From Pristiophorus japonicus (lineage: Eukaryota): a DNA stretch of 64,000 bases. The position numbers and the translations under genes are program-made. The stretch spans positions 80,538,001 through 80,602,000 of the forward strand of contig NC_091987.1 in the NCBI RefSeq assembly GCF_044704955.1. The letters are read 5' to 3'. Of the stretch, positions 11,802 through 61,786 are shown in pieces. Position 1 is the stretch's first letter. The number at the start of each line of letters is the position of its first letter. The notes under the pieces are model-generated. The model was not told the origin of the DNA. It was given only the letters and a program-made list of their open reading frames with translations, and made no database searches.

Positions 11802-13804
11802 TGTCATGTATGTATGCTTGGGGTTACTAGCCACCACATGGCGCCACTGTCGGAGGTCACGCGTGTGCAGCCCAGGTATAAAAAGCAAGCCATCATGTAA
11901 TGTAATCACTTTGGGCCTGAATAAAGCAGAGCCAGGTTCGTACCCATGTTAGTTTACAGTATTCAGTCTATCGAGTTATTACATACATAACATTTGGCGA
12001 CGAGGTAACTTACGAACCTTTGCATGCAAAAATGAGCACAATTGGAATTCTGGAGAGAACTGGGCAGATTTTGTAGCTCGCCTGGACCAGTACTTCGTGG
12101 CCAACAAAATGGAGGAACCCACTGACGCAGTTAGGCAGAGGGCGGTCTTCCTCACGGTTTGCGGTCTGAAAATCTATGGACTCAAAGAATCTTCTCTCCC
12201 CTGCAAGTCCAACGGACAAGGACTATGAGGAATTGTGCGCTCTGGTACGTGACCATCTCAAATCAGAAGAAGACATCATCATCTTACGATATCGATTCTA
12301 CTAGCACGTTCGTTCTGAGGGCCAAGATGTGCCGGAATTCATTGCCGACCTAAGACGTCTAGCTGGACCGTGTAAGTTCGAAAACACGTTGGGAGACATG
12401 CCGCAGAACTTCTTTGTAATCGGCATTAACCATGAGCTGATCCTGCGTAAGCTACTGGTGGCGGAGACGCTGGATTTGAGCAAGGCCATCACAATTGCCC
12501 AGGCATGCATGACGATGGACAAAAACTTAAAGCAGATAGCATCGGAAAATCGGAACTTGGCAAGTACTGTAAACAAGATTGTATCATGTTTGGCAAAGGT
12601 GCATATGGCAGGGCCTACTCGACTGCATATGTGAAACCTGTGGCTGCCCAAAGTTGCCAACAGGAATGAATCCAATTTCACCGTGTTGGCGTTGTGGGGT
12701 CAATCATCGGCCTCATCAGTGTCGGTTTAAACAGTAGATTTGTAAAGGCTGTTCGAGACTGGGGCATCTCCAGCGCATGTGTCCGCAACAGAACAAGCGT
12801 GCTGCGACACACCAAGTGGAGGATGATGACCAGTATAGCGCAGATCCGGGTATGCAATTCGAGATACCAGAGAAGGAAGTGTATGGACTGTATTCGTTCC
12901 TAACAAAGAGCCAACTGATAAGTTTCACATTAATCATTAACGGTGTGCCGGTACCGATGGAATTGGCCTGTCATGCATATTGCTTAGTTACAGGACAAGA
13001 TCCCACACGCTTACCGGGGTCCCCCTGCTGAACTATTGATGAAGAGAGGTCTCAAGACCAAGCTCTCTCTTGTCCACCCTGACTTGAACGATCATGTTGA
13101 ATACAGACGTTAAAGTCAGCAGTGATATCATGATCGTGCTGCTGTGTCACGGGACATTTCTGTTAACGATCCTGTACATGTACTAAATTATGGTCAAGGT
13201 CCCAAATGGATCGCCGGTACTGTTACGGCCAAGGAGGGTAACAAAGTGTTTATCATCAACCTCAAGAATGGGCAGACATGCAGGAAACATGTTGATCAGA
13301 TGTTGATAAAGCTGTGGCACATGGATGAATGGGAACAGTCTGAGGAAGACACAATCAGTGACCAACCAACCTACCCTCAGTCATCAGAGGACTCCGATGT
13401 CATAAATGAATCTGGACTTTCAATCCCTGATATGGTCATTGCCACTCCCATCAGATCGGCTACCCAGCCCCCAGTCATAACAGACTCAAAACACTTGCCC
13501 AAGGCTGGAGTTGAACTGAGACGATCAACTCAGGAGCGGAAAGCCCCGGAGCATCTCAATTTGTAAAAAGACTGTTACTAATATCTTAAAAGGGGATATT
13601 GTCATGTATGTATGCTCGGGGTTATTAGCCACCAGGTTGTGCGACTGTCGGAGGTCATTGGGCTGTACGCACGTGTGTGCAGCCCAGGTATAAAAGGCAA
13701 GCCATCATGTAATGTAATCACTTTGGGCCCGAATAAAGCAGAGCCAGGTTTGTACCTGTGTTAGTTTACAGTATTCAGTCTATTGCGTTATTACATACAT
13801 AACA
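11802..13804 (+). mobile_element. Gypsy (Mag-like) LTR retrotransposon, internally deleted; LTRs 11802-11992 and 13600-13804
   Basis: TGTCAT...ATAACA LTR pair and 5-bp TSD CAAAG (11797-11801, 13805-13809). PBS TGGCGACGAGG (11995-12005) matches the tRNA-Ser 3' end. Gag with two CCHC-like knuckles. Protease start is fused to the integrase C-terminus. Confidence 0.93.
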
Positions 13805-15862
13805 CAAAGGCCTTTGACACTGTTAACCGCGAGGGACTATGGAGCGTCCTCCTCCATTTCGGCTCCCCCAAAAAGTTTGTTACCATCCTCTGCCTGCTGT
13901 ATGACAACATGCAAGCCGTAATCCTGACCAATGGATCCACCACAGACCCAATCCAAATCCGGACTGGGATCAAGTAGGGCTGCATCATCGCGCCAATCCT
14001 CTTTTCGATCTTCCTCGCTACAATGCTCCATCTCACGCTCAACAAGCTCCCCGCTGGACTGGAACTAAACTACAGAACCAGCGGGAACCTGTCCAGGCTA
14101 GATTCAAGACCATCCCATCCTCTGTCGTCGAAATACAGTATGCGGACGATGCTTGCATCTGCGCACATCGTCAACATCTTCCCCGAGGTATACGAAAGCA
14201 TAGGCCTTACACTAAACATCCGTAAGACAAAGGTTCTCCACCAACCTGACCCCGCCACACAGCACTGCCCCCCCAGTCATCAAAATCCACGGTGTGGCCT
14301 TGGACAACATGGACCACTTTCCATACCTCGGTAGCCTACTAACAGTAAGGGCAGACATCGACGACGAGGTCCAATACTGCCTCCAGTGCACCAGCGCAGT
14401 CTTTGGTCGGCTGAGGAAGAGAGTGTTAGAAGATCAGGCCCTCAAATCTGGCACCAAGCTTCTGGTCTACAGGGCTGTAGTGATACCCGCCCTCCTGTAT
14501 GGCTCAGAGACATGGACCATATGCAGTACTCACCTCAAATCACTGGAGAAATACCACCAACGATGTCTCCGCAAGATCCTGCAAAGCCCCTGGGAGGACA
14601 AATGCACCAACGTCCGTGTCCTCCATCAGGCCAACATCCCCAGCATTGAAGTATTGACCACACTCAACCAGCTCCATTGGGTGGGCCACATTGTCCGCAT
14701 GCCCGACACGAGACTCCCAAACCAAGAGCTCTACTCGGAACTCCTGCACGGCAGGCGATCCCCAGGTGGGCAAAGGAAACATTTCAAGGACACCCTCAAA
14801 GCCTCCTTGATAAAGTGCAACATCCCACCCACACCTGGGAATCCCTGGCTAAAGACCGCCCTAAGTGGAGGAAGAGCATCCTGGAGGGGGCTGAGCACCT
14901 CGAGTCTCGTTGCCGAGAGCATGCAGAAAACAAGCGCAGACAGCAGAAGGAGCATACGGCAAACCAGACTCCCCACCTACACTTTCCTTAAACCACTGTC
15001 TGTCCCACCTGTGACAGAGACTGTAATTCCCATATTGGACTGTATAGAGTGGAAGCAAGTCTTCCTCAATTTCAAGGGACTGCCTATTATGATGTTAATT
15101 ATCAACCAGCCTCTCCTCAAGTGAAATGTAGAGGTCAGCGTGTTTGAGCTGGCTTCCCAACGCGGTCATTTTCCCTGGCTTTAATCCCCAACCCACACCC
15201 TCTCGCAAAAGTTATATTTTCATCTTTGCAGAGGAAAGTGACACACAACAAACGAGAAAGAACTCGAACAGGAGGAGGCCGGGCAAATTTGCACCTACTG
15301 ACACCCTTGGAAGAGAAGGTCGCTGCTTTGATAGATCCTGCCTGGAGAAAAGCAACCACCACTGCACAAGCTGGACCCACACTTGAGGGAGATGGTAAGT
15401 CCTGCAAATTCCACAGTCTGGCTTTGCTAAATGTTAAATACTGCGAGGGCTAGCCATGCTTCGGTTCATGCGGATGTTTCCATCAGCTATGCTTTGGTTG
15501 ATGCAATGTGCTATCATTCATCATGGTCCTGCAAATCAGCCTTCTACCTGCTATGTGTGAGCCTACTCATGCCACCCACCCTGCCCCCTCCTCTGCTGCT
15601 AATTATTTGTCTGTTCTGTTATATTTTGCAGAACTTGAGGCCAACCCTGACGATGCAGAAGAAGATTCAGACGAGGACGAGCTTGAAGAGAACATCTTCC
15701 AATCCCACCTTCCAGACCAAGAGAATGGGGGGTGGGGGAAAGGGGATGGATGAAGTCCCCACTGTTGTACTCACTTTGGAGGAGGTTCAGGTGCCGCCCA
15801 TTGGGATGCTAGCCCCTTCCCTGAGTTGTGGTTTGAGTGTTATTGGGACATTCCATGGTTTC

Positions 15863-16132
15863 CCACCGTCCGAGGCTGCGGATCCCAGTGGGATGCAGCA
15901 AGGCACACCCAGGGCCCCACAGTCCGAGGCTGCGGGTCCCAGTGGGATGCAGCGAGCCACACCCAGGGCCCCACAGTCCGAGGCTGCGGGTCCCAGTGGG
16001 ATGCAGCGAGCCACACCCAGGGCCCCACAGTCCGAGGCTGCGGGTCCCAGTGGGATGCAGCAAGGCACACCCAGGGTGCCACTATCTGAGGCTACGGGTC
16101 TCACTGGGATGCTGTGAGCCACACCCAGAGTG
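15863..16132 (+). repeat. 54-bp minisatellite x5 (PQSEAAGPSGMQRATPRA) in the Harbinger partner ORF
   Basis: Five in-frame units starting at 15863, 15917, 15971, 16025 and 16079. Confidence 0.95.
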
Positions 16133-16330
16133 AGGAGGGGAAGGAGAGCTCAACTGCGCTCTCCTGAGGTGCAGGACCTAACAGACGAGGTTCAGATGAT
16201 GGCAATGAGTGCGGAGAGGATTGACCTTACCCGATCACTCCTGGACACCATCAGTGGGATGGGTGATGAGGTATCGGGACTGTCGGGAGAAGTAACAACA
16301 CTCTCTGAAACTGAAACCATATTGGTGCAC

Positions 16331-17679: not shown

Positions 17680-18192
17680 GGCGTGGAAATCCTGGCCTCC
17701 CCGGGTCCGTACTGAGTGTTTACGGACCCGGGAAAGCATCGCAAAAGCCGGTTTTCAGTACACAATGCACATGCACTTGACAGATCTCAGTATATCAGGT
17801 GCGAGGACATTTGCAAAGGCAAGATTGTGGGATTTAACAATATCTTGCCCAGCAAATGTCCTCAAAATTCTTGCGCCTGATAAAAGCAAGCGTATAGCCT
17901 AGTTTTACAGAGTAAGAGTTTAAAAACATACAAAAATATAATAAAATTAAATTTAAAAAAACACATTTTTAAAAACCCTGCCCACTACATTACATTTAAT
18001 TTTAACCATAATTAAAAAAAAATTTTTAAAACTCTGAATTTTTTTTCCTAAGATATTTATTAACTTTAATTTTAATTATGTGAGGTGTGTTTTTTATTTT
18101 TTATTATGTGTTCGGTGTGTTTGTTTTTTTTTCTCATTAATAGCAATGAGAACTTGTAGATACGGGAAGCCTCTGACTGCAATTTCAGCCCC
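17680..18192. mobile_element. Non-autonomous Harbinger-type MITE
   Basis: Imperfect TIRs GGCGTGGAAAT / AATTTCAGCCCC, a subterminal palindrome CCCGGGTCCGTA..TACGGACCCGGG and an AT-rich core. Confidence 0.55.
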
Positions 18193-18315
18193 AATAATAT
18201 AGCAGGCATGTTTAGCAGGATAGGTGCACTAATGATATTGGTATTATGTCTTTAACTCCATTTAGCTACTAATATGGGTTTTTTTGTGAAAATTCTGCCT
18301 TTTGTACACTGATAC

Positions 18316-18525
18316 TGTTATGTATGTAAACCTGTAAATACCATGTCTAACCACCAGAGGGCTTATCCCCTGCAGTCCCAAGAGATCCCACAATCCCTTG
18401 GGAGTACCTGTATATAAGGAGGCCTCACAGGCTGGAGAGGCATTCTGAGATCTGTAATAAAGGACTGCTGTCGCACCTTACTTTGAGCTTGCAGTATCTA
18501 GTCTGACTCTATGCAAGACATAACC
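18316..18525 (+). mobile_element. Gypsy solo LTR inserted in the last coding exon of the HHLA2-like gene
   Basis: TGTTAT...ATAACC (terminal CA mutated to CC). TSD GATAC at 18311-18315 and 18526-18530. Colinear with the 5' LTR at 24158-24369 (AACCACCAGAGGGCTTATCC, AATAAA, TTACTTTGAGCT). Confidence 0.92.
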
Positions 18526-18617
18526 GATACAAGCAGTAATCATTACGAACAGTGCAAGTATTGCAATAATTATTCCAAAATATCGGTGTCTTTGGCTTTC
18601 CTCATGTGGTGCTGAGT
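18478..18617 (-). CDS. HHLA2: HHLA2-like coding exon 5: stalk, transmembrane (YFGIIIAILALFVMITACI) and LTR-derived tail GYVLHRVRLDTASSK*
   Basis: Lies within ORF 18478..18663. Acceptor ctctgttcaaatttcag in phase 1. 19-aa hydrophobic stretch. It is the only TM-like exon I found downstream of IgV2; linkage across the 19.7-kb intron is inferred. Confidence 0.75.
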
Positions 18618-19126
18618 CTGAAATTTGAACAGAGTACATTTTAGAAAACTTCATAGAATTCACACATGCAGTATGTCTGCAAAACTAAAGAAACACAATG
18701 ACTAGGGAATTTAAATAAAAAGAAAAAACTAAAGATTCTGGAATAAAAAGTGGTAAATGGCTGGACACGCACAGCTTAGGTGACTGCCTTTTTGAGGACA
18801 GCTATATTAATACTCTAAAAGAGGAAAAGAGGGTGAGTCATGTACTCCATGAATGATGTTGAAATAGCTAAACATGGTGTCAAATTGGACCTGGGATTCT
18901 TAGAGATTTACTGTGTAACATATCCCACCAATGCAGAACAGCAATCAAAGTAAATAGAATGCTAAACTAAATAGCCAAAACAGTATAATAGAAGTCACAG
19001 GAAGTCACACTCAAACTGTCTAGTGCTCTGGTTAAACCACTCTTTGAGCACTGTCACTAGTTCTGTCCAGTGAATCACATTCAAACACTGGAGGTAGTGC
19101 AGAGAGGAGTCACGAGGCTGATCCCT

Positions 19127-24157: not shown

Positions 24158-26880
24158 TGTTATATATTTAAACTTGTATATACCTTGTACAACCACCAGA
24201 GGGCTTATCCTCTGGAGTCCCAAGGGATTCCATAATCCCTTGGGAGCACAGGTACTTAAGGAAGCCTCACAGGCTGAGGAGGCACTCTGGAGATCTGCAA
24301 TAAAAGACTAAGGTCACACTTTACTTTGAGCTCACAGTTTCCAGTCAGACTCTTTATTCATACATAACAACTGGCGACGAGATACAAATGACGAACCCAA
24401 CGATATAGAGTAGAGTGGGCATCCTGGAGAAATTCTTGGAAGTAGATGATTGGGAAACCTTTGTGGGGTGACGAGCTGGAAGGAGAAGCGAACGCTGCCA
24501 AACGAAGGGCAATTCTCTTCACCGTCTGCGGGGCACCACCGTATAGCCTCATGAAAAACCTGCTTGCTCCAGCAAAACCCACGATGATTTGTGCACACTG
24601 GTCCGGGTGCATCTGAACCCGAAGGAAAGCATTCTGATGGCGAGGTACCGGTTCTACACCTACAATAGGTCTGAAGGCCAGGAAGTGGCGAGTTATGTCG
24701 CCGAACTAAGATGCCTTGCAGGACATTGAAATTTAAAGGACATTTGGAGCACATGCTCAGAGACTTTTTCATACTTGGCATTGGCCATGAAATGATACTT
24801 CGCAAACTTTTGACTGTAGAGACCCTAACCTTGAGTAAGGCCATAGCGATAGCCCAGGCATTCACTGCCACCAGTGACAATACTAAGCAAATCTCTCAGC
24901 ACACGAGTGCTACTACAAGTACTGTGAACAAAGTGATGTTGTTTTCAAATCGCAATGTACAGGACAGGCCCCACATTCCTGCAGCTGCACATTCTGCAGA
25001 TGTCTCAGAGTCCACCATCAAGGGTGATGAATCCAAGGCCATTAACACCTTGTTGGCGCTGTGGGGGTGATCATCATTTCCATTCATGCCACTTCAAAAG
25101 GTACATTTGCAAGGGCTGTGGAACAATGGGACACCTCCAACGTATGTGCAGGCGAGCTGCAAATCCTGTTAATCCTGAAAACCACCATGTTGCAGAGGAG
25201 GACAGATCCATGGCGGATCACGATGAACCAGAGCCTCAGACTGAGGAGGCAGAGGTATATGTGGTGCACACATTCACCACAAAGTGTCCCCCGATAACGC
25301 TGAAGGTTGAACTAAATGGACTCCCAGTGTCAATGGAGCTGGACACGGGTGTGAGCCAGTCCATTATGAGCAAAAAGACTTTCGAAAAATTGTGGTGCAG
25401 CAAAGCCTCAAGGCCACTCTTGACTCCAATTCACACAAAACTGAGAACATAAACAAAGGAACTGATTCCTGTAATCGGCAGTGCCACTGTAAAAGTCTCC
25501 TATGATGGAGTGGTGCACAAGCTACCACTCTGGGTGATACCGGGCGATGGTCCCAAGCTGCTCGGAAGGAGCGGGCTGGGAAAGATATGCTGGAACTGGG
25601 ACGACGTCCGAGCGCTCTCATCCGCTGACGACACTTTGTGTGCTCAGGTCTTAAACAAGTTCCCTTCGCTGTTCGAACCATGCATCGGGAAGTTCCAAGG
25701 AGCAAAAGTGCAGATCCACCTAATTCCGGGGGCACGACCCATCCATCGCAAGGCGAGAGCAGTACCGTACATGATGAGAGAAAGGGTAGAGATCGAGCTA
25801 GACTCGCTGCAAAGAGGGAGCATAATTTCGTAGGTCGAATTCAATGAGTGGGCCAGTCCAATTGTTCCTGTCCTCAAGGGAGACGGCACCGTCAGAATCT
25901 GTGGTGATTACAAAGTAACTATCAATCGTTTCTCCCTGCAGGATCAATACCCAGTACCAAAGGCCGATGACCTTTTTGCTACGCTGGTGGGAGGAAAGAT
26001 GTTCACGAAGCTGGACTTGGCCTCAGCCTACATGATGCAGGAGCTGGAGGAATCATTGAAGGCTCTCACCTGCATCAACACATACAAAGGTCTCTTTATT
26101 TATAACAGATGACCATTTGGAATTCGATCAGCGGCGGCGATATTCCAGAGAAACATGGAAAGCTTACTGAAGTCGGTCCCGCGCACGGTGGTCTTCCAGG
26201 ATGACATCTTGGTTACAGGTCGGGACACAAGCGAGCATCTGCAGAATCTGGAGGAGGTTCTTAGTTGACTCAACCATGTGGGGCTCAGGTTAAAATGCTC
26301 GAAGTGCGTTTTCCTAGCGCCTGAAGTGGAGTTCCTGGGCAGAAGAATCGCGGCGGACGGCATCAGGCCCACCGATCCGAAGACGGAGGCAATCGAGAAC
26401 GCACCGAGGCCACAGAACGTGATGGAGCTGCGGTCATTTCTAGGACTCCTGAACTATTTTGGTAACTTCTTACCGGGTCTCAGCACACTGTTAGAAGCAC
26501 TGCACGCTTTACTGCATAAAGGAGACGAATAGGTATGGGCAAAACCCAAGAAAATGCCTTTGTAAAAGCTAGAAAATTGTTATACTCAAACAAATTGCTT
26601 GAGTTGTCTGATCCATGTAAGCGTTTGGTACTAGATTGTGATGCATTGTCAAATGTCATCGGGTGTGTATTGCAACAAACTAATGATTTTGGGAAATTGC
26701 AACCAGTTGCTTATGCATCCAAGAGTCTGTCTAAGGCTGAGAGAGCCTACAGCATGATTGAAAAAGAAGCGTTAGTGTGTGTCTATGGGGTAAAGAAAAT
26801 GCATCAATATCTGTTTGGGCTCAAATTTGAATTGGAAACTTACCATAAGCCACTAATATCCCTGTTTTCCGAGAGTAAAG
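24158..26880 (+). mobile_element. Gypsy (Mag-like) LTR retrotransposon, 3'-truncated: 5' LTR 24158-24369, PBS, gag, protease, RT, part of RNase H
   Basis: PBS TGGCGACGAG at 24372. Knuckles CWRCGGDHHFHSC and CKGCGTMGHLQRMC. Protease ELDTG. RT WASPIVPV, VFQDDILV and LRSFLG. RNase H LDCDA..YSMIEKEAL. Confidence 0.93.
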
Positions 26881-28246: not shown

Positions 28247-31097
28247 TAAGGTGGATGAATTAACTGTGCAAATAGATGTTAACAAATATGATGTGATTGG
28301 GATTACGGAGACGTGGCTCCAGGATGATCAGGACTGGGAACTCAACATCCAGGGGTATTCAACATTCAGGAAAGATAGAATAAAAGGAAAAGGAGGTGGG
28401 GTAGCATTGCTGGTTAAGGAGGAAATTAAGGCAATAGTTCGGAAGGACATTAGCTTGGATGATGTGGAATCTATATGGGTAGAGCTGCAGAACACCAAAG
28501 GGCAAAAAAACGTTAGTGGGAGTTGTGTACAGACCTCCAAACAGTAGTAGTGATGTTGGGGAGGGCATCAAACATGAAATTAGGGGTGCATGCAATAAAG
28601 GTGCAGCAGTTATAATGGGTGACTTTAATATGCACATAGATTGGGTTAACCAAACTGGAAGCAATACGGTGGAGGAGGATTTCCTGGAGTGCATAAGGGA
28701 TGGTTTTTTAGACCAATATGTCGAGGAACCAACTAGGGGGGAGGCCATCTTAGACTGGGTATTGTGTAATGAGAGAGGATTAATTAGTAATCTCGTTGTG
28801 CGAGGCCCCTTGGGGAAGAGTGACCATAATATGGTGGAATTCTGCATTAGGATGGAGAATGAAACAGTTAATTCAGAGACCATGGTCCAGAACTTAAAGA
28901 AGGGTAACTTTGAAGGTATGAGGCATGAATTGGCTAGGATAGCATGGCGAATGTTACTTAAGGGGTTGACTGTGGATGGGCAATGGCAGACATTTAGAGA
29001 CCGCATGGATGAACTACAACAATTGTACATTCCTGTCTGGCGTAAAAATAAAAAAGGGAAGGTGGCTCAACCGTGGCTATCAAGGGAAATCAGGGATAGT
29101 ATTAAAGCCAAGGAAGTGGCATACAAATTGGCCAGAAATAGCAGTGAACCCGGGGACTGGGAGAAATTTAGAACTCAGCAGAGGAGGACAAAGGGTTTGA
29201 TTAGGGCAGGGAAAATGGAGTACGAGAAGAAGCTTGCAGGGAACATTAAGACGGATTGCAAAAGTTTCGATAGATATGTAAAGAGAAAAAGGTTAGTAAA
29301 GACAAACGTAGGTCCCCTGCAGTCAGAATCAGGGGAAGTCATAACGGGGAACAAAGAAATGGCGGACCAATTGAACAAGTACTTTGGTTCGGTATTCACG
29401 AAGGAGGACACGAACAACCTTCCGGATATAAAAGGGGTCGGGGGGTCTAGTAAGGAGGAGGAACTGAGGGAAATCCTTATTAGTCGGGAAATTGTGTTGG
29501 GGAAATTGATGGGATTGAGGGCCGATAAATCCCCAGGGCCTGATGGACTGCATCCCAGAGTACTTAAGGAGGTGGCCTTGGAAATAGTGGATGCATTGAC
29601 AGTCATTTTCCAACATTTCATTGACTCTGAATCAGTTCCTATGGAGTGGAGGGTAGCCAATGTAACCCCACTTTTTAAAAAAGGAGCGAGAGAGATAACA
29701 GGGAATTATAGACCGGTCAGCCTGACATCGGTAGTGGGTAAAATGATGGAATCAATTATTAAGGATGTCATAGCAGTGCATTTGGAAAGAGGTGACATGA
29801 TAGGTCCAAGTCAGCATGGATTTGTGAAAGGGAAATCATGCTTGACAAATCTTCTGGAATTTTTTGAGGATGTTTCCAGTAGAGTGGACAAGGGAGAACC
29901 AGTTGATGTGGTATATTTGGACTTTCAGAAGGCTTTCGACAAGGTCCCACACAAGAGATTAATGTGCAAAGTTAAAGCACATGGGATTGGGGGTAGTGTG
30001 CTGACATGGATTGAGAACTGGTTGTCAGACAGGAAGCAAAGAGTAGGAGTAAATGGGGACTTTTCAGAATGGCAGGCAGTGACTAGTGGGGTACCGCATG
30101 TTCTGTGCTAGAGCCCCAGCTGTTTATACTGTACATTAATGATTTAGACGAGGGGATTAAATGTAGTATCTCCAAATTTGTGGATGACACTAAGTTTGGT
30201 GGCAGTGTGAGCTGCGAGGAGGATGCTATGAGGCTGCAGAGTGACTTGGATAGGTTAGGTGAGTGGGCAAATGCATGGCAGATGAAGTATAATGTGGATA
30301 AATGTGAGGTTATCCACTTTGGTGGTAAAAACAGAGAGACAGACTATTATCTGAATGGTGACAGATTAGGAAAAGGGGAGGTGCAAAGAGACCTGGGTGT
30401 CATGGTACATCAGTCATTGAAGGTTGGCATGCAGGTACAGCAGGCGGTTAAGAAAGCAAATGGCATGTTGGCCTTCATAGCAAGGGGATTTGAGGACAGG
30501 GGCAGGGAGGTGTTGCTACAGTTGTACAGGGCCTTGGTGAGGCCACACCTGGAGTATTGTGTACAGTTTTGGTCTCCTAACCTGAGGAAGGACATTCTTG
30601 CTATTGAGGGAGTGCAGCGAAGGTTCACCAGACTGATTCGAGGGATGGTGGGACTGACCTATCAAGAAAGACTGGATCAACTGGGCTTATATTCACTGGA
30701 GTTCAGAAGAATGAGAGGGGACCTCATAGAAACGTTGGGTTAGACAGGTTAGATGCAGGAAGAATGTTCCCAATGTTGGGGAAGTCCAGAACCAGGGGAC
30801 ACAGTCTAAGGATAAGGGGTAAGCCATTTAGGACCGAGATGAGGAGGAATTTCTTCACCCAGAGAGTGGTGAACCTGTGGAATTCTCTACCACAGAAAGT
30901 TGTTGAGGCTAATTCACTAAATATATTCAAAAAGGAGTTAGATGAAGTCCTTACTACTAGGGGGATCAAGGGGTATGGCGAGAAAGCAGGAATGGGGTAC
31001 TGAAGTTGCATGTTCAGCCATGAACTCAATGAATGGCGGTGCAGGCTAGAAGGGCCGAATGGCCTACTCCTGCACCTATTTTCTATGTTTCTATGTT
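28247..31097 (+). mobile_element. Young CR1, 5'-truncated ORF2
   Basis: 531-aa and 212-aa EN/RT ORFs and (TTCTATGT)n tail. Confidence 0.96.
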
Positions 31098-37353: not shown

Positions 37354-38367
37354 GGTGACATTGCGGCCAGCAGAGCTCGCCTTTCTCCGATAGGATTTAC
37401 TTCATTTTTATCAGTATTTTAATTGTTTGACCTTTTCTTTGCAATGTTTGGTGCTTGGTTGTTGAGGTCCGCTCCGGTTCCCTTCCCTCCCCTATCCCTG
37501 CCCTAATGTCTGCCGAATGTGCGCTGCTTTTTCTTCACTGCCCGCAAGGTTTTTCAGAGCTGGCCACATACGCTGACCTAAGTCGATTTGGAGTAAGTTT
37601 TAGCTGGCCAAAGTAGCATAAATGGCCAAAGCTGGCATAAGTGTCTGGGAAAGCCCCCTTTTGAAAAAAAAACGACCTAAAAAAATCATACCTAATTGAC
37701 TTATTCTGGAGCAAATTTTGGGGGGAAAATGGAATTTTTTAACTTACGCCAGAAAAAAACAACTTACTCCAAAAAAATTGATGCAAGTCATGGTCAAAGT
37801 TCGGCCTATTCGAGGCAAATACTGATGAAGTCTTAGAAACCGAATATTAACAAAAGAAATTCAAACAATGATATCCTATATTTGGTAAAAAAAAAAGATC
37901 AGCTCGAAGTCTGACACATTAGTTTGCGCTGATCCGTGAAATTACATTAGTTTCTCATCCATTTTCTCTTCTTCGGGTCACTCACCAGCATTGTGCTTTA
38001 GGTACAGTGGTGACAAGTGACCTGGAAGGCAAGGAGACTTACTTTGGCCTTCCACTCTGTCCTTTCTTTCGAGGAATTGGGTTCAACTTCAGCACAGACT
38101 GATGGAAGGAAAGTCTTTCCTCAATCTGCTTGTTGTAATGCTCGTACCCAGAATGAGTTCCTGGTGGCCATAGCTCTACAGCACAAAACTGCCCACATAT
38201 TGGCACGCTGACCCAGAATGGTTATAAGAATGGTAACTGTAAGAAATTACACTTTTTTGGCGAGAACATTCTCATATTACAACACACAGGGGTTTCAGGT
38301 CAATCAAAGGTTAAAGTATAGTCTAGCAAATTTTAATTTGGAACCACACAAATTATTGGCAGCTTAC

Positions 38368-38679
38368 CTATTTTTAGAATGTAGGTGAATACTTGCATTG
38401 TATCCTTGGCTCTGATTTCACAGGTGTATTCTCCTGCATCTTCCAAAGTTACACGGTGAAATACAAGGGATGAAGATTTCTGGTTGTTTAACATTTCTAA
38501 TTGTTCCTTCGTACAATTTGAGCGTACATCACTATGTTGGTGCATTGATTTACAGATTATCACTAAAAGGGAGGTTTCTGTGTTTCTAAACTTCCATGTA
38601 ATTGTCAAATTTTGATCAATATTGGCGGAATAGTTGCAAGTAATTATGATGGTTTGACTCTCCTTTTCTTTTAGTGTGC
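38368..38679 (-). CDS. HHLA2: HHLA2-like coding exon 4: IgV domain 2 (GTLKEKESQTIIITCNYS...ITWKF...EDAGEYTCEI...YILKI)
   Basis: Extends ORF 38333..38608 upstream to acceptor tatttttaag. V-set C, W and DxGxYxC motifs. Donor G|GTAAGC. 312 nt, phase 1-1. V-C-V order is the HHLA2 architecture. Confidence 0.88.
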
Positions 38680-44671: not shown

Positions 44672-44965
44672 CTTGCATTTTCCAGGACGCAGTCCATGAC
44701 TGTTGCAACCGTTCATTCTTAATATTACATTTGTAGGTTGTGTTTGACGTTTGATTAATCTTCAAAATGCTTTTAATGTTGTAAAGTTCTTCTGGATCAA
44801 TAGATCCTTCTGACCATGAGTCATTAGTTAGGTCACTCCCGTTCTCATCTTGCCATTGTAATGATGGCTTTGGATAAGCACCAGATGCAGAACAGATAAT
44901 ATTTACACCCTCGGTCACAGCATACAGCATATTCGGGGGATATAGTGCCAAATTCTTACTTTCAG
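44672..44965 (-). CDS. HHLA2: HHLA2-like coding exon 3: IgC domain (ICSASGAYPKPSLQW...YNIKSIL...YKCNIKNERLQQSWTASWKMQ)
   Basis: Lies within ORF 44661..45005. B7-type C domain motif CxxxGxYPxPxxxW. The CxIxNxxLxQxWTxxWxM ending resembles HHLA2 as I recall it. Acceptor ttcctttcag, donor G|GTAATA. 294 nt, phase 1-1. Confidence 0.92.
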
Positions 44966-45215: not shown

Positions 45216-48200
45216 AGGTGGCCATACAGCCTCAAAAAAGTGGTTATAAAAGTGGATTTCGGGTGGAATGGAAGACCAGCAGGAAGAGTAGTGCAAGGAA
45301 GGTAGTGCAGGGGTCCCCTGTGGTCATCCCCCTGCAAAACAGATACACCGCTTTGAGTACTGTTGGGGGGGATGACTCATCAGGGGAGGGCAGTAGCAGC
45401 CAAGTTCATGGCACCGTGGCTGGCTCTGCTGCACAGGAGGGCAGGAAAAAGAGTGGGAGAGCGATAGTGATAGGGGATTCAATGGTAAGGGGAATAGATA
45501 GGCGTTTCTGCGGCCACAACCGAGACTCCAGGATGGTATGTTGCCTCCCTGGTGCAAGGGTCAAGGATGTCTCGGAGCAGGTGCAGGACATTCTGAAAAG
45601 GGAGGGAGAACAGCCAGTTGTCGTGGTGCACAGTGGTGCCAACGACATAGGTAAAAAAAGGATGAGGTCCTACGAAACGAATTTAAGGAGCTAGGAGCTA
45701 AATTAAAAAGTAGGACCTCAAAAGTAGTAATCTCGGGATTGCTACCAGTGCCACGTGCTAGTCAGAGTAGGAATCGCAGGATAGCGCAGATGAATACGTG
45801 GCTTGAGCAGTGGTGCAGCAGGGAGGGATTCAAATTCCTGGGGCATTGGAACCGGTTCTGGGGGAGGTGGGACCAGTACAAACCAGATGGTCTGCACCTG
45901 GGCAGGACCGGAACCAATGTCCTAGGGGGAGTGTTTGCTAGTGCTGTTGGGGAGGAGTTAAACTAATATGGCAGGGGGATGGGAACCAATGCAGAGAGAC
46001 AGAGGGAGGCAAAAGCAAAAGACAGAAAGGAGATGAGGAAAAGTGGAGGGCGGAGAAACCCAAGGCAAAGAACAAAAAGGGCCACTGTACAGCAAAATTA
46101 TAAAAGGACAAAGGGTGTTAAAAAAACAAGCCTGAAGGCTTTGTGTCTTAATGCAAGGAGTATCCGCAATAAGGTGGATGAATTAACTGTGCAAATAGAT
46201 GTTAACAAATATGATGTGATTGGGATTACGGAGACGTGGCTCCAGGATAATCAGGGCTGGGAACTCAACATCCAGGGGTATTCAACATTCAGGAAGGATA
46301 GAATAAAAGGAAAAGGAGGTGGGGTAGCTTTGCTGGTTAAAGAGGAGATTAATGCAATAGTTAGGAAAGACATTAGCTTGGATGATGTGGAATCTATATG
46401 GGTAGAGCTGCAGAACACCAAAGGGCAAAAAACGTTAGTGGGAGTTGTGTACAGACCACCAAACAGTAGAAGTGATGTTGGGGAGGGCATCAAACAGGAA
46501 ATTAGGGGTGCATGCAATAAAGGTGCAGCAGTTATAATGGGTGACTTTAATATGCACATAGATTGGGCTAGCCAAACTGGAAGCAATATGGTGGAGGAGG
46601 ATTTCCTGGAGTGCATAAGGGATGGTTTTCTAGACCAATATGTCGAGGAACCAACTAGGGGGGAGGCCATCTTAGACTGGGTGTTGTGTAATGAGAGAGG
46701 ATTAATTAGCAATTTCATTGAGCGAGGCCCCTTGGGGAAGAGTGACCATAATATGGTGGAATTCTGCATTAGGATGGAGAATGAAACAGTTAATTCAGAG
46801 ACCATGGTCCAGAACTTAAAGAAGGGTAACTTTGAAGGTATGAGGCGTGAATTGGCTAGGATAGATTGGCGAATGATACTTAAGGGGTTGACGGTGGATG
46901 GGCAATGGCAGACATTTAGAGACCGCATGGATGAACTACAACAATTGTACATTCCTGTCTGGCGTAAAAATAAAAAAGGGAAGGTGGCTCAACCGTGGCT
47001 ATCTAGGGAAATCAGGGATAGTATTAAAGCCAAGGAAGTGGCATACAAATTGGCCAGAAATAGCAGCGAACCCGGGGACTGGGAGAAATTTAGAACTCAG
47101 CAGAGGAGGACAAAGGGTTTGATTAGGGCAGGGAAAATGGAGTATGAGAAGAAGCTTGCAGGGAACATTAAGGCAGATTGCAAAAGTTTCTATAGGTATG
47201 TAAAGAGAAAAAGGTTAGTAAAGACAAACGTAGGTCCCCTGCAGTCAGAATCAGGGGAAGTCATAATGGGGAACAAAGAAATGGCAGACCAATTGAACAA
47301 GTGCTTTGGTTCGGTATTCACTAAGGAGGACACAAGCAACCTTCCGGATATAAAAAGGGTCAGAGGGTCGAGTAAGGAGGAGGAACTGAGGGAAATCCTT
47401 ATTAGTCGGGAAATTGTGTTGGGGAAATTGATGGGATTGAAGGCCGATAAATCCCCAGGGCCTGATGAACTGCATCCCAGAGTACTTAAGGAGGTGGCCT
47501 TGGAAATAGCGGATGCATTGACAGTCATTTTCCAACATTCCATTGACTCTGGATCAGTTTCTATCGAGTGGAGGGTAGCCAATGTAACCCCACTTTTTAA
47601 AAAATGAGGGAGAGAGAAAACAGGGAATTATAGACCGGTCAGCCTGACCTCAGTCGTGGGTAAAATGATGGAATCAATTATTAAGGATGTCATAGCAGCG
47701 CATTTGGAAAATGGTGACATGATAGGTCCAAGTCAGCATGGATTTGTGAAAGGGAAATCATGCTTGACAAATCTTCTGGAATTTTTTGAGGATGTTTCCT
47801 GTAAAGTGGACAAAGGAGAACCAGTTGATGTGGTATATTTGGACTTTCAGAAGGCTTTCGACAAGGTCCCACACAAGAGATTAATGTGCAAAGTTAAAGC
47901 ACATGGGATTGGGGGTAGTGTGCTGACGTGGATTGAGAACTGGTTGTCAGACAGGAAGCAAAGAGTAGGAGTAAATGGGTACTTTTCAGAATGGCAGGCA
48001 GTGACTAGTGGGGTACCGCAAGGTTCTGTGCTGGGGCCCCAGCTGTTTACATTGTACATTAATGGTTTAGACGAGGGGATTAAATGTAGTATCTCCAAAT
48101 TTGCGGATGACACTAAGTTGGGTGGCAGTGTGAGCTGCGAGGAGGATGCTATGAGGCTGCAGAGCGACTTGGATAGGTTAGGTGAGTGGGCAAATGCATG

Positions 48201-49031
48201 GCAGATGAAGTATAATGTGGATAAATGTGAGGTTATCCACTTTGGTGGTAAAAACAGAGAGACAGGCTATTATCTGAATGGTGACAGATTAGGAAAAGGG
48301 GAGGTGCAACGAGACCTGGGTGTCATGGTACATCAGTCATTGAAGGTTGGCATGCAGGTACAGCAGGCGGTTAAGAAAGCAAATGACATGTTGGCCTTCA
48401 TAGCGAGGGGATTTGAGTACAGGGGCAGGGAGGTGTTGCTACAGTTGTACAGGGCCTTGGTGAGGCCACAACTGGAGTATTGTGTACAGTTTTGGTCTCC
48501 TAACTTGAGGAAGGACATTCTTGCTATTGAGGGAGTGCAGCGAAGATTCACCAGACTGATTCCCGGGATGGTGGGACTGACATATCAAGAAAGACTGGAT
48601 CAACTGGGCTTGTATTCACTGGAGTTCAGAAGAATGAGAGGGGATCTCATAGAAACGTTTAAAATTCTGACGGGTTTAGACAGGTTAGATGCAGAAAGAA
48701 TGGTCTCAATGTTGGGGAAGTCCAGAACCAGGGGTCACAGTCTAAGGATAAGGGGTAAGCCATTTAGGACCGAGATGAGGAGAAAGTTCTTCACCCAGAG
48801 AGTGGTGAACCTGTGGAATTCTCTACCACAGAAAGTAGTTGAGGCCAATTCACTAAATATATTCAAAAGGGAGTTAGATGAAGTCCTTACTACTCGGGGG
48901 ATCAAGGGGTATGGCGAGAAAGCAGGAATGGGGTACTGAAGTTGCATGTTCAGCCATGAACTCATTGAATGGCGGTGCAGGCTAGAAGGGCTGAATGGCC
49001 TACTCCTGCACCTATTTTCTATGTTGCTATG
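45216..49031 (+). mobile_element. Young near-complete CR1: ORF1 SGNH esterase (frameshifted) plus ORF2 EN-RT broken by a single TGA at 47605-47607
   Basis: RAIVIGDSMVR (GDS esterase motif) and DGLHL. ORFs 45979..47607 and 47656..48939 are in the same frame. CR1 3' UTR and tail. Confidence 0.97.
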
Positions 49032-54999: not shown

Positions 55000-55326
55000 C
55001 AGCCACTTGTAGCAAGATGTTCCTTTCTTGTTTTCCTTCGGACGTACTGATGTAACATTGGTACTCTCCTTCATCAATCTTGTTAATTCCTGTAAGGTGG
55101 AGGGATGCATTTCCTTTCATTATCTCACTGATAAAAAGCTTTGTTCTTCCTTTGTAGTTTGGATCTTGGTTGGATAGCTGATCTGTCATTCGATAAAAGC
55201 TGTGAACAACAATGGTCTTCTTGGACAGTTTGCGCATCCAGTGAAGCACTATTTCAGACAACTGAGTTGGTCGAAATGTACATGGCAAAACCACATCCTT
55301 GGAAATGACAGCTGTGATGCTCCCAT
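55000..55326 (-). CDS. HHLA2: HHLA2-like coding exon 2: IgV domain 1 (DGSITAVISKDVVLPCTF...VLHW...VVHSFY...YKGRTKLF...GNASLHL...DEGEYQCYI...LLQVA)
   Basis: Lies within ORF 54923..55402. B7/butyrophilin-type V-set motifs (C, W, VHSFY, RTxLF, GNASL, DEGxYxC). Acceptor ttgcttttag, donor G|GTCAGA. 327 nt, phase 1-1. Confidence 0.92.
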
Positions 55327-56812: not shown

Positions 56813-56870
56813 CTGTATTTAGTAGTTGAACAATTCCGAAAATACTAAAGCAGACTATTCGTAGTAACAT
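56813..56870 (-). CDS. HHLA2: HHLA2/B7-H7-like gene, coding exon 1: signal peptide MLLRIVCFSIFGIVQLLNT + phase-1 G
   Basis: ATG at 56870 (acaaagATG, A at -3) with in-frame upstream stops. 19 mostly hydrophobic codons, then G|GTGACA donor. Phase 1 matches the next exon. Candidate acceptor ttttattgtag would start the exon at 56999. Confidence 0.8.
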
Positions 56871-57154
56871 CTTTGTGCCTCATTCAGTTCACAATAGGTT
56901 GCATCCGAAAGTATCTTCACAAGTAAAGATATATGCAGAGAGAATCTTCATCTTGTTTCTCAGTCGAACAGTCCAGATTATTTCTTAAGAATCATCTTTC
57001 TACAATAAAAAAAAATCCCACATCTAAAAATCCCATAGTCATAGATTATAGAAATAAAAAACGAATATGCTAACAACACTCAGCAGGTCAGGCAGCATCT
57101 TTGTCATAAATCTTAGCAGCTAATGTTCTAAATAAGTTTCATAATACAAAGGTA

Positions 57155-59620
57155 CAAACTGGAAGCAATACGGTGGAGGAGGATTTTCTGGAGTGCATAA
57201 GGGATGGTTTTTTAGACCAATATGTCGAGGAACCAACTAGGGGGGAGGCCATCTTAGACTGGGTGTTATGTAATGAGAGAGGATTAATTAGCAATCTCGT
57301 TGTGCGAGGCCCCTTGGGGAAGAGTGACCATAATATGGTGGAATTCTGCATTGGGATGGAGAATGAAACCGTTAATTCAGAGACCATGGTCCAGAACTAA
57401 AAGAAGGCTAACTTTGAAGGTATGAGGCGTGAATTGGCTGGGATGGATTGGCGAATGATACTTAAGGGGTTGACTGTGGATGGGCAATGGCAGACATTTA
57501 GAGACCGCATGGATGAACTAAAACAATTGTACATTCCTGTCTGGCATAGAAATAAAAAAGGGAAGGTGGCTCAACCGTGGCTATCAAGGGAAATCAGGGA
57601 TAGTATTAAAGCCAAGGAAGTGGCATACAAATTGGCCAGAAATAGCAGCGAACCTGGGGACTGGGAGAAATTTAGAACTCAGCAGAGGAGGACAAAGGGT
57701 TTGATTAGGGCAGGGAAAATGGAGTATGAGAAGAAGCTTGCAGGGAACATTAAAACGGATTGCAAAAGTTTCTATAGATATGTAAAGAGAAAAAGGTTAG
57801 TAAAGACAAACGTAGGTCCCCTGCAGTCAGAATCAAGGGAAGTCATAACGGGGAACAAAGAAATGGCGGACCAATTGAACAAGTACTTTGGTTCGGTATT
57901 CACGAAGGAGGACACGAACAACCTTCCGGTTATAAAAGGGGTCGGGGGGTCTAGTAAGGAGGAGGAACTGAGGGAAATCCTTATTAGCCGGGAAATTGTG
58001 TTGGGGAAATTGATGGGATTGAAGGCCGATAAATCCCCAGGGCCTGATGGACTGCATCCCAGAGTACTTAAGGAGGTGGCCTTGGAAATAGTGGATGCGT
58101 TGACAGTCATTTTCCAACATTCCATTGACTCTGGATCAGTTCCTATGGAGTGGAGGGTAGCCAATGTAACCCCACTTTTTAAAAAAGGAGGGAGAGAGAA
58201 AACAGGGAATTATTGACCGGTCAGCCTGACATCGGTAGTGGGTAAAATGATGGAATCAATTATTAAGGATGTCATAGCAGTGCATTTGGAAAGAGGTGAC
58301 ATGATAGGTCCAAGTCAGCATGGATTTGTGAAAGGGAAATCATGCTTGACAAATCTTCTGGAATTTTTTGAGGATGTTTCCAGTAGAGTGGATAAGGGAG
58401 AACCAGTTGATGTGGTATATTTGGACTTTCAGAAGGCGTTCGACAAGGTCCCACACAAGAGATTGATGTGCAAAGTTAGAGCACATGGGATTGGGGGTAG
58501 TGTACTGACATGGATTGAGAACTGGTTGTCAGACAGGAAGCAAAGAGTAGGAGTAAATGGGTACTTTTCAGAATGGCAGGCAGTGACTAGTGGGGTACCG
58601 CAAGGTTCTGTGCTGGGGCCCCAGCTGTTTACACTGTACATTAATGATTTAGATGAGGGGATTAAATGTAGTATCTCCAAATTTGCGGATGACACTAAGT
58701 TGGGTGGCAGTGTGAGCTGCGAGGAGGATGCTGTGAGGCTGCAGAGCGACTTGGATAGGTTAGGTGAGTGGGCAAATGCATGGCAGATGAAGTATAATGT
58801 GGATAAATGTGAGGTTATCCACTTTGGTGGTAAAAACAGAGAGACAGACTATTATCTGAATGGTGACAGATTAGGAAAAGGGGAGGTGCAAAGAGACCTG
58901 GGTGTCATGGTACATCAGTCATTGAAGGTTGGCATGCAGGTGCAGCAGGCGGTTAAGAAAGCAAATGGCATGTTGGCCTTCATAGCAAGGGGATTTGAGT
59001 ACAGGGGCAGGGAGGTGTTGCTACAGTTGTACAGGGCATTGGTGAGGCCACACCTGGAGTATTGTGTACAGTTTTGGTCTCCTAACCTGAGGAAGGACAT
59101 TCTTGCTATTGAGGGAGTGCAGCGAAGGTTCACCAGACTGATTCCCGGGATGGCGGGACTGACCTATCAAGAAAGACTGGATCAACTGGGCTTGTATTCA
59201 CTGGAGTTCAGAAGAATGAGAGGGGACCTCATAGAAACATTTAAAATTCTGACTGGGTTAGACAGGTTAGATGCAGGAAGAATGTTCCCAATGTTGGGGA
59301 AGTCCAGAACCAGAGGTCACAGTCTAAGGATAAGGGGTAAGCCATTTAGGACCGAGATGCGGAGGAACTTCTTCACCCAGAGAGTGGTGAACCTGTGGAA
59401 TTCTCTACCACAGAAAGTTGTTGAGGCCAATTCACTAAAAATATTCAAAAAGGAGTTAGATGAGGTCCTTACTACTAGGGGGATCAAGGGGTATGGCGAG
59501 AAAGCAGGAATGGGGTACTGAAGTTGAATGTTCAGCCATGAACTCATTGAATGGCGGTGCAGGCTAGAAGGGCCGAATGGCCTACTCCTGCACCTATTTT
59601 CTATGTTTCTATGTTTCTAT
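57155..59620 (+). mobile_element. Young CR1, 5'-truncated ORF2
   Basis: ORFs 57173..57400, 57422..58216 and 58238..59521 are in one frame with two stops. (TTCTATGT)n tail. Confidence 0.96.
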
Positions 59621-61786
59621 GACATATCTAAGGAGATTAAGCTAGCATGTGATGCCTCTCCGTATGGAGTTGGGGCAGTGATCTCTCATGTATTACATAA
59701 TGGAGAGGAGAGACTAATTGCTTTTGCTTCACGCACTCTCAGTGCCAGTGAGCGTAATTATGCGCAAATCGAAAGGAAAGCGTTAGCATTAGTGTTGGGG
59801 GTCAAGAAGTTCCACAAATACTTGTATGGTTGTAAGTTTACCATCGTTACGGACCATAAGCCCCTGACAGCAATCCTCCATCCAAAGTCCCCAGTTCCAA
59901 CATTAGCTGCAGCCCGAATGCAGAATGGGCTTTGATTTTGTCAGCATATACATATGATATTGAATACAGATGATCAGCTTATTACAGTAATGCTGATGCT
60001 ATGTCTAGATTGCCTTTCCCATCACAAGTTACACCCGATAGGGAAGAAGTGTTCTCTTTTTCATACATTGATGAACTGCCAGTCACAGCTGAAGAGATTG
60101 GTAGAGCAACCAAATGTGACCCAGTGATGTCAAAAGTGTATGATTATATTGCAAATAGATGGCCAAACCAGGTAACAGACACAGATATTCATCCATTTTT
60201 CATTCATAGGAATGAATTATCAGTCGATAAAGATTGTATCATGTGGAGTGCAAGAGTGGTTATACCAAATAAATTCAGGTCCAAATTATTAGGAGACCTC
60301 CATGACCAGCACCTGGGAATGTGCTTGACCAAGAGTTTTGCATGCAGTTACTTATGATGGCCAGGCCTTGATAAAGATATAGAGTACATTGTAAGTCAGT
60401 GTACGACATGTCAATCGGTAAGCAAGCAACCACCATCAGTACCATTACAGTCATGGAAATGGCCTTCCAGGGTGTGGCAAAGGCTACATATTGATTTTGC
60501 TGAGTTAGAAGGACAACATTTGTTCATTGTGATTGATAGCCATTCGAAGTGGGTCGAGGTGTTGCCAATGTGGAAAATAACAACAATTAAAATAGACATT
60601 TTGCGAAGTTTATTTTCTTCATTTGGCTTCCCAGACAAAATTCTTTCTGATAATGGACCACAATTTCGTTCAGAAGAATTTGCACAGTTCATGAGCAAAA
60701 ATAGGGTGAAACATACCAAGGTTCCACCATACCACCCTGCTTCAAATGGTGCAGCAGAGCGCACTGTACAAATTGTAAAACGCGTCCTCATCAAACAAAT
60801 GTTGATCCAAATCCAAAGAAACGACAGTTGTCATTGGATCACAAATTGGCTAATTTTCTAATTACGTATCATAATACTTCTCATACAACTACTGGTAGAA
60901 CACCAGCAGAGTTGTTTCTCAAACGACAGCCACGAACCAGATTCTCGTTGTTGAAACCAAATTGGGCACAGTCCATAGAAGAGACACAATTAAGACAGAA
61001 AGAGAATCATGATAGAGGTAGAGTAAAAGAGAGAAGTGTGAAATTAAATCAGAAGGTGAGAGTGAAGAACCATCACCATAAATAGTTAAAGTGGTTACTA
61101 GGAAGTGTGATGAAGATATGTGGTCCTCGCACATATTTGGTCAAGATGTTTGATAATTGACAGGTTAGGTTTGTTCACATTGATCCTATTTTACCTACAG
61201 ACATGGAAGGAGTTGAAGGTGGGAATGATTCAATTATTTCTGACTCATCAGATAGTTTTGATACACCAGTAGCATATCCTACATCTAATGTACTGGAAAC
61301 AAATCCAAGAGAAAATCAGAATTTAAGTCTGAGTCCGAGTCAGGAAAACAAACAGTCTGAAGTTAGTGAGTTCAGATGGAAATCAAGGGCATCCCTTGGA
61401 GGAAAACTTTCCTCAGGATCAGCCTCGAATGAGTTTAAATTTGACACCATGTTTGGAAGGTTCTGTTCGAGAGCGAAGGTATCCTCTTCGAAACAGAAAA
61501 CTAGTGGTTAAACTTAATTTGTGAATATGGCAAAATAAATCCATATCCTTTATGTATAACCATGCAAGTTATGTATGATGATTGTTGTTATAATAACTTC
61601 TTCATTAGGGAGGGAGAAGTGTGATGTCTGTAGCTCCACACTGTGGACGTATTGTGTTACTGCAACTAGAGTGTTTAATAAACAGACAGGTCACCTGACA
61701 AGAAGCAGGAAGCTTCCACAGGCTTCTGGAGGATCTGCCATTTTAAAAGACTTGTGTGAAGTGTGCTCTCTTGGAAATACTACACA
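59621..61786 (+). mobile_element. Gypsy 3' part: RNase H, integrase, PPT and 3' LTR (61620-61786)
   Basis: [20 protein letters not shown] (HHCC), RLHIDFA, LSDNGPQF and PYHPASNGAAER motifs. PPT AGGGAGGGAGAAG, then TGTG...CACA. Confidence 0.93.

Follow-up and report, generated by a model that had tools for sequence, protein, structure and literature searches.

Where does the reading frame of a membrane-anchored immune ligand end when a retrotransposon has landed between its transmembrane codons and its stop? This question is raised by a locus of the shark Pristiophorus japonicus, analyzed here in a stretch of 64,000 nucleotides of contig NC_091987.1 (the window). A first-pass annotation had proposed that a long terminal repeat (LTR) supplies the cytoplasmic tail and the stop codon of a B7-family, HHLA2-like ligand. 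The reading that we favor, at a probability of about 60%, is that the mRNA reads into an antisense solo LTR, that the predicted last 15 residues of the protein are LTR derived, and that this swap was tolerated rather than selected. The features on which the analysis is based are listed in Table 1.

Table 1. Positions of the exons, of the insertion, and of associated sequence features in the window
Feature	Position	Strand	Remark
Leader (signal peptide) exon MLLRIVCFSIFGIVQLLNT, phase 1	56813..56870	-	Best scanned ATG...GT candidate, score 54 versus 12 for the next
IgV1 exon	55000..55326	-	83% identical to Cetorhinus P0001; single copy
IgC exon (C2-set, butyrophilin/CD80-like)	44672..44965	-	Single copy
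IgV2 exon	38368..38679	-	Donor GTAAGC at 38367
Host part of last coding exon (stalk and transmembrane helix)	18526..18617	-	Single copy in genome
Target-site duplication, right copy GATAC	18526..18530	+	Within last two host codons
Solo LTR, Ty3/Gypsy-type family	18316..18525	+	Element sense; antisense to gene
2-bp deletion and adjacent substitution site	18510..18513	-	Sets copy apart from family; opens frame beyond codon 10
LTR-derived codons GYVLHRVRLDTASSK and TAA stop	18478..18525	-	Predicted present C terminus
Donor-like AAA/GTAAGG, phase 2	18476..18484	-	Overlaps stop; family-wide
Target-site duplication, left copy	18311..18315	+	With LTR end makes two AG acceptors, ahead of 18314 and of 18308, both weak and both in old-tail frame
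Pre-insertion tail SVQKAEFSQKNPY-TAG	18269..18310	-	Frame still open; predicted to lie in present 3' UTR
Second interspersed repeat, unrelated to LTR (ends approximate)	17680..18197	.	First AATAAA hexamers past stop (18105, 18098)

Exon structure and identity of the host gene

Five exons (leader-IgV-IgC-IgV-TM) with compatible phases and AG/GT ends form an open frame of 376 aa that is not interrupted by any stop. The upstream exons had all been described as open, which we found to be the case, and the leader exon, which showed 63% identity to the leader of the basking shark orthologue P0001, was identified in addition. For the IgV1 exon, the next best match in the genome was at 47%.

The gene encodes an IgV-IgC-IgV ectodomain and a single transmembrane (TM) segment, and this V-C-V build is that of HHLA2 according to PMC10173190. 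CIP2A exons were located at C11:80.457-80.499 Mb, in convergent orientation and ~57 kb from the stop of the gene. In mammals, CIP2A neighbors Hhla2, the block being described in PMC4467842 as CIP2A (KIAA1524)/MYH15/IFT57. Linkage to IFT57 was not seen in the shark, where IFT57 sits on C5 (211.82-211.87 Mb) and not beside the HHLA2-like gene on C11. When the whole ectodomain was used in BLAST, the top six of 15 non-chondrichthyan rows were named HHLA2 (122 to 142 bits), whereas the rows named CD276 scored no more than 116 bits. The skate orthologue is named HHLA2, and that of the basking shark is named VTCN1-like. The IgV1 domain alone had its best scores to B7-H4 and B7-H3 among the solved structures. 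On the basis of the architecture, the CIP2A neighbor, and the ectodomain scores, the gene is most likely HHLA2/B7-H7, present in a single copy beside CIP2A. The HHLA2-like identity given at first pass is thereby retained, with a tree that does not split HHLA2 off from B7-H3 and B7-H4 (such a split in 0% of bootstrap trees).

Although the basking shark protein (P0001; Cetorhinus XP_078416700.1) carries the label VTCN1-like, its domain order is V-C-V and it clusters with the skate HHLA2 and the window protein; it is likely a misnamed HHLA2.

Several other elements were observed in the window. Broken gag-pol-like frames of LTR retrotransposons are present at 24335-26529 (last intron), 11953-13563 (downstream), and 59528-60858 (upstream of the gene). 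LINE-like endonuclease/RT open frames of up to 546 codons (28483-30108, 45967-48936, and 57110-59518) lie in or near the introns, in every case on the other strand from the gene. In addition, a short tandem array of ~57-base units occupies positions 15754-16149 and gives repeated peptides in several frames.

The insertion and the reading frame across it

Directly after the codons for ITACI, a 210-base solo LTR, which starts with TGTTATG and ends with CATAACC, lies between two exact copies of GATAC. Every coordinate that had been given for it was recovered, and so was the frame that had been read through it. On the minus strand, the last exon reads SAPHEESQRHRYFGIIIAILALFVMITACI from the AG before 18617 and then enters the LTR, giving ...ITACI-GYVLHRVRLDTASSK-TAA with the stop at 18480-18478. 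In silico deletion of the LTR and one duplication yielded ...ITACISVQKAEFSQKNPY-TAG, the tail portion of which is ...ITACI-SVQKAEFSQKNPY-TAG, the same pre-insertion tail as had been proposed. The basis of this empty-site reading is the duplication together with protein alignments.

Both LTR junctions were found with 0 differences in the public DNA run X1 (2 records, only one of which has at least 31 letters on either side). Since these junctions are present and the TM exon occurs once in the genome, an assembly artifact is unlikely, an argument that bears on assembly error and not on fixation. An assembly-specific allele had been named as a possible objection; no empty-site joint skipping the LTR was detected in run X1, which represents one sample, perhaps the assembly's own animal, with contigs that drop rare alleles. 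Among public RNA runs, none was listed for positions 18140-18640, and three small runs (X5, X6, and X7) covered the LTR family and other repeats without reaching the TM exon; neither outcome speaks for or against expression.

A search of the shark's own genome (5.9 Gb) gave 2,650 first-look LTR candidates. Forty were scored, 39 of them being non-self matches at 92% to 96%, and the family has >2,300 copies. The window LTR starts with TG, and 8 of its 10 terminal bases are complementary. Its last base is altered, the terminal CA having been changed to CC as annotated: CA is present in 26 of the 27 other copies, and the window base is present in 0 of 27. From 30 LTR loci, L023 and L030 were left out because of uncertain ends. 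Among the remaining 28 clear-ended copies, a primer-binding-site-like word comes after 17, a purine tract stands before 7, and 4 look solo. The two LTR copies of element L031 are 4.4 kb apart and enclose protease, RVT_1, RT_RNaseH, and rve domains in this order, the protease match being weak and below the cutoff. Duplications of 5 bp with 0 or 1 mismatch were found in 9 of 10 paired elements. By its domain order, the family is of the Ty3/Gypsy type, in agreement with the first-pass assignment, although the order alone excludes only Copia. The RT_RNaseH/RT_RNaseH_2 matches in the element fit Gypsy, and its length of ~4.6 kb presumably does so as well.

By eye, the broken frame at 24335-26529 looks similar to the interior of L031. 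The LTR family was also observed in a second organism (run X5, organism B), in 96 contigs, 19 of which matched at ≥99%; the family therefore predates or crosses the species boundary.

An orthologue search returned four orthologues among 119 candidates; a repeat recovered these four, and a further search added a fifth, P0031. The last coding exon could be compared by counting the residues after the last Ig strand: 40 in the basking shark, 41 and 42 in the skate and a close relative, ~40 in P0031, and 35 in the catshark, the sequence of which is possibly incomplete. The gene studied here has 44 such residues in its old form and 46 in its new form. For the P0002 cluster (12 members) and for P0031, the whole multi-exon frame was found on Logan contigs of 1.5 to 5.9 kb, suggesting that these are likely spliced transcripts. 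The TM exon is the last coding exon in the relatives also, ending 35 to 42 residues into the region. Because all five cartilaginous-fish clusters end there, the default model has the frame continuing into the LTR. Past the best helix, the orthologues have short tails of 0 to 9 residues that are mutually unrelated, and the LTR-encoded tail of the window gene was present in 0 of the 5 orthologue clusters. A likeness between SQR in the skate and SQK in the old tail, seen by eye without gaps, was dropped because the MAFFT placement differed between two alignments.

Instead of being read through, the LTR could be mostly spliced out, as the main form or beside read-through, from the donor at 18482/18481 to an acceptor at the LTR end or the duplication. 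Such a 167-nt GT...AG intron would give the product ...DTASS-NI-SVQKAEFSQKNPY, which combines LTR residues with the old tail. The donor, which had been pointed out as overlapping the stop, matches 7 of 9 consensus positions, the 2-bp deletion lets translation reach it, and the two acceptors are in frame with an old tail that is still open. However, the donor 9-mer is unmodified family sequence (22 of 26 copies), and the acceptors have only 9 pyrimidines in 18 positions, whereas nearer ones in other frames have up to 13 of 18. One AG in three would be in frame by chance, and a 39-nt old tail would stay open 81% to 89% of the time under neutrality. We therefore consider splicing within the LTR unlikely and retain read-through as the preferred reading.

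As for 3' end formation, neither AATAAA nor ATTAAA is present on the gene strand of the LTR. The second repeat begins ~70 bases past the old stop and contains the first such hexamers downstream, and its family copies carry AATAAA too; a transposon may thus have supplied the poly(A) signal as well. This repeat had 3,820 first-look candidates at ~90% identity, with an end word that is repeated inverted in the copies.

Age and remodeling of the predicted LTR-derived tail

The LTR had been suggested to extend the TM helix and to add a basic stop-transfer patch. This part of the proposal was not upheld. The best 19-mer helix has a hydropathy of 2.83 in the old form and 2.80 in the new form, and the old tail has 2 basic residues and the present tail 3; with an equally hydrophobic helix and 2 basic residues in the old tail, no stop-transfer rescue was needed. 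Moreover, the patch depends on the deletion and on one substitution that at least 25 of the 27 other copies lack. Inspection of the two tails by eye revealed no NPxY, YxxPhi, dileucine, or KKxx motif in complete form; the new tail has RxR near the membrane.

When the family is read in the gene frame, the stop falls at codon 10 in 23 of the 27 other copies, and 13 of the 27 read exactly CYVLNKESD. Compared with the column yardstick, the window copy has 8 substitutions and one 2-bp deletion. The deletion shifted the frame past the family stop, and the present basic tail of 15 residues requires the deletion and two substitutions. Five of the six orientation and phase readings of the LTR meet a stop within 25 codons in 22 to 27 of 27 copies, so a short tail is a chance outcome.

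The 2-bp deletion near the right end of the LTR was observed in 17 apparently unrelated copies (L042-L068; window included), against 2,376 exact long-form matches and 10 long-form matches with a substitution, or in ~0.7% of ~2,400 pattern matches. A short-form subfamily, in which the deletion would have been inherited from the source element, was considered and rejected. The short-form copies (12 aligned of the 16 others) are 92.7% alike mutually and 94.0% alike to long-form copies, a comparison that is biased because the long-form set was chosen by likeness to the window copy, and they share just 1 of the 8 substitutions of the window copy. As the short-form copies form no subfamily, the deletion likely arose at the HHLA2-like locus after the insertion. 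The two substitutions likely arose at this locus too. The recurrence of the deletion in 16 other unrelated copies suggests a mutable spot.

Did selection shape these changes? In a true exaptation, the LTR tail would have been fixed or reshaped by selection, a net-acidic tail of 9 residues becoming a basic one of 15 that anchors or traffics better or loses a palmitoylation-type cysteine. The deletion is rare, with the window copy standing outside any short-form subfamily, and the flank of the present best helix has 3 K+R and 1 D+E. Three of the nine LTR changes fall within the first 15 bases, all of them protein changing. Their binomial clustering gave a P value of 0.02 for these 15 bases, a span chosen post hoc, but values of 0.12 over the first-read 30 bases and of 0.34 over the present coding stretch of 48 bases (3 events against 6 in the 162 others). 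Enrichment was not significant in any prechosen window; the clustering is a faint hint of selection and not evidence for it. None of the three changes is synonymous, leaving no measure of constraint, the deletion also sits at the mutable spot noted above, and the tails of relatives vary freely. Exaptation thus appears very unlikely. The earlier claim of a tail swapped by LTR exaptation holds for the swap itself at the DNA level, but its selected use is not supported, given the short and unrelated tails of the relatives. A more elaborate version, in which selection remodeled the antisense LTR within 15 bases and retention or splicing of the 167 bases switches between the new tail and the new-plus-ancestral tail, is the least probable of the readings considered here.

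The swap would instead have been tolerated in an old insertion. The 8 substitutions in 210 bases correspond to 3.8% divergence from the column yardstick. The 5'-3' LTR divergence is 4.2% to 8.1% in 9 of 10 paired elements, or 3.2% per LTR, the pair L092/L091 (28%, badly cut) having been left out. Judged by these values, the insertion is old, at about 3% to 4% divergence. In the epaulette shark, the mutation rate is 7e-10 per generation and the effective population size is near 710,000 (PMC10587355). With this rate from another shark, the insertion would be tens of millions of generations old, compared with a few million for a neutral polymorphism. Its age is thus far above the lifetime of such a polymorphism, and the insertion is likely fixed in the species.

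Alternatively, the insertion could be an accident, irrelevant or slightly harmful, and the gene could be silent, in decay, or polymorphic for the insertion, with little protein carrying the LTR tail being made. HHLA2 is absent in mouse and rat (PMC10173190), and some sharks lack its receptor CD28H (PMC11599192), indicating that the pathway can be lost. Neutral-decay simulations are relevant here. At the measured family rates, the upstream part of the gene (1,083 coding bases plus its splice sites) stayed intact in 1.5% of cases. Laxer rates gave a frame survival of 4% to 12%, and two hand-set runs gave 5% and 18%, so the most lenient settings keep the frame intact in 12% to 18%, which favors an accident. 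However, the gene has five intact exons with canonical splice ends, its IgV1 remains as close to the basking shark as listed in Table 1, and the end branch of the V-C region is short (0.12, compared with 0.16 and 0.25 in relatives). The 1.5% survival and the age of the LTR, which speaks against polymorphism, point in the same direction. The gene probably stayed functional under purifying selection, and an accident in a failing gene is distinctly unlikely.

The events that we favor would have occurred in the following order. A full-length element would have inserted antisense at GATAC, an orientation generally tolerated for elements inside genes according to PMC1794541. Since an element placed in this way would have carried neither AATAAA nor ATTAAA on the gene strand and would have closed the frame early, within the last exon, a membrane-anchored protein with all three Ig domains would still have been made. 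LTR-LTR recombination would then have left the solo LTR, and the allele would have become fixed. Finally, the 2-bp deletion and two substitutions would have turned a tail of ~9 residues into a basic one of 15. The ectodomain would continue to act as a B7 ligand, the tail serving mainly as a membrane anchor.

Comparison with known systems and significance

The shark case works like the capture of a last coding exon by a transposable element, a known process to which it adds one more clean example. Alu sequences are present in the principal coding exons of human ZNF101, ZNF91, ZNF394, TTF1, and ZNF669 (PMC6924539). There also, a retroelement in an existing last coding exon gives the C-terminal residues and sometimes the stop, and the same paper reports little evidence of selection on such additions. 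In contrast to the Alu cases, the shark gene has an antisense Gypsy-type solo LTR, encodes a membrane immune ligand, and keeps its displaced tail intact behind the insertion. IL-13Ralpha1-LOR1a is likewise an immune membrane protein in which LTR-type sequence takes the place of the 3' UTR and of some of the cytoplasmic tail. That form, as described in PMC7617988, uses a facultative, spliced alternative last exon and has a shown effect on signaling through a motif-bearing tail, whereas the shark insertion is in the predicted constitutive exon of a short-tailed ligand.

A further likeness is to HHLA2 itself. Polyadenylation of primate HHLA2, a gene named for the LTR, in a HERV-H LTR was reportedly described by Mager et al. 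in 1999. According to PMC9035628, this LTR supplies the polyadenylation signal, and the human tail has 49 aa with "no recognizable motif"; the shark tail has at most 15 aa. The two genes would have taken up an LTR at the 3' end independently, so HHLA2 would have acquired one there twice. In primates, the LTR is retroviral and gives a poly(A) signal in the 3' UTR, whereas the antisense shark LTR gives codons and a stop and carries no such signal on the gene strand. Among the papers listed in our literature searches, there was no account of the shark LTR-HHLA2 case and nothing specific on reverse signaling by HHLA2.

Because of the duplication, the displaced tail, and the >2,300 sister copies, three tail states (old, family type, and present) can be compared, which makes the importance of the cytoplasmic tail of a B7 ligand directly testable. 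If selective remodeling with a splice switch were true, the 3' end of HHLA2 would have been captured by an LTR for a second time, independently of the primate HERV-H case. Selection or alternative splicing of the tail would make the locus a rare instance of a checkpoint ligand with a tail switch built from an LTR. If the swap was neutral, the HHLA2 tail in cartilaginous fish would be only an anchor.
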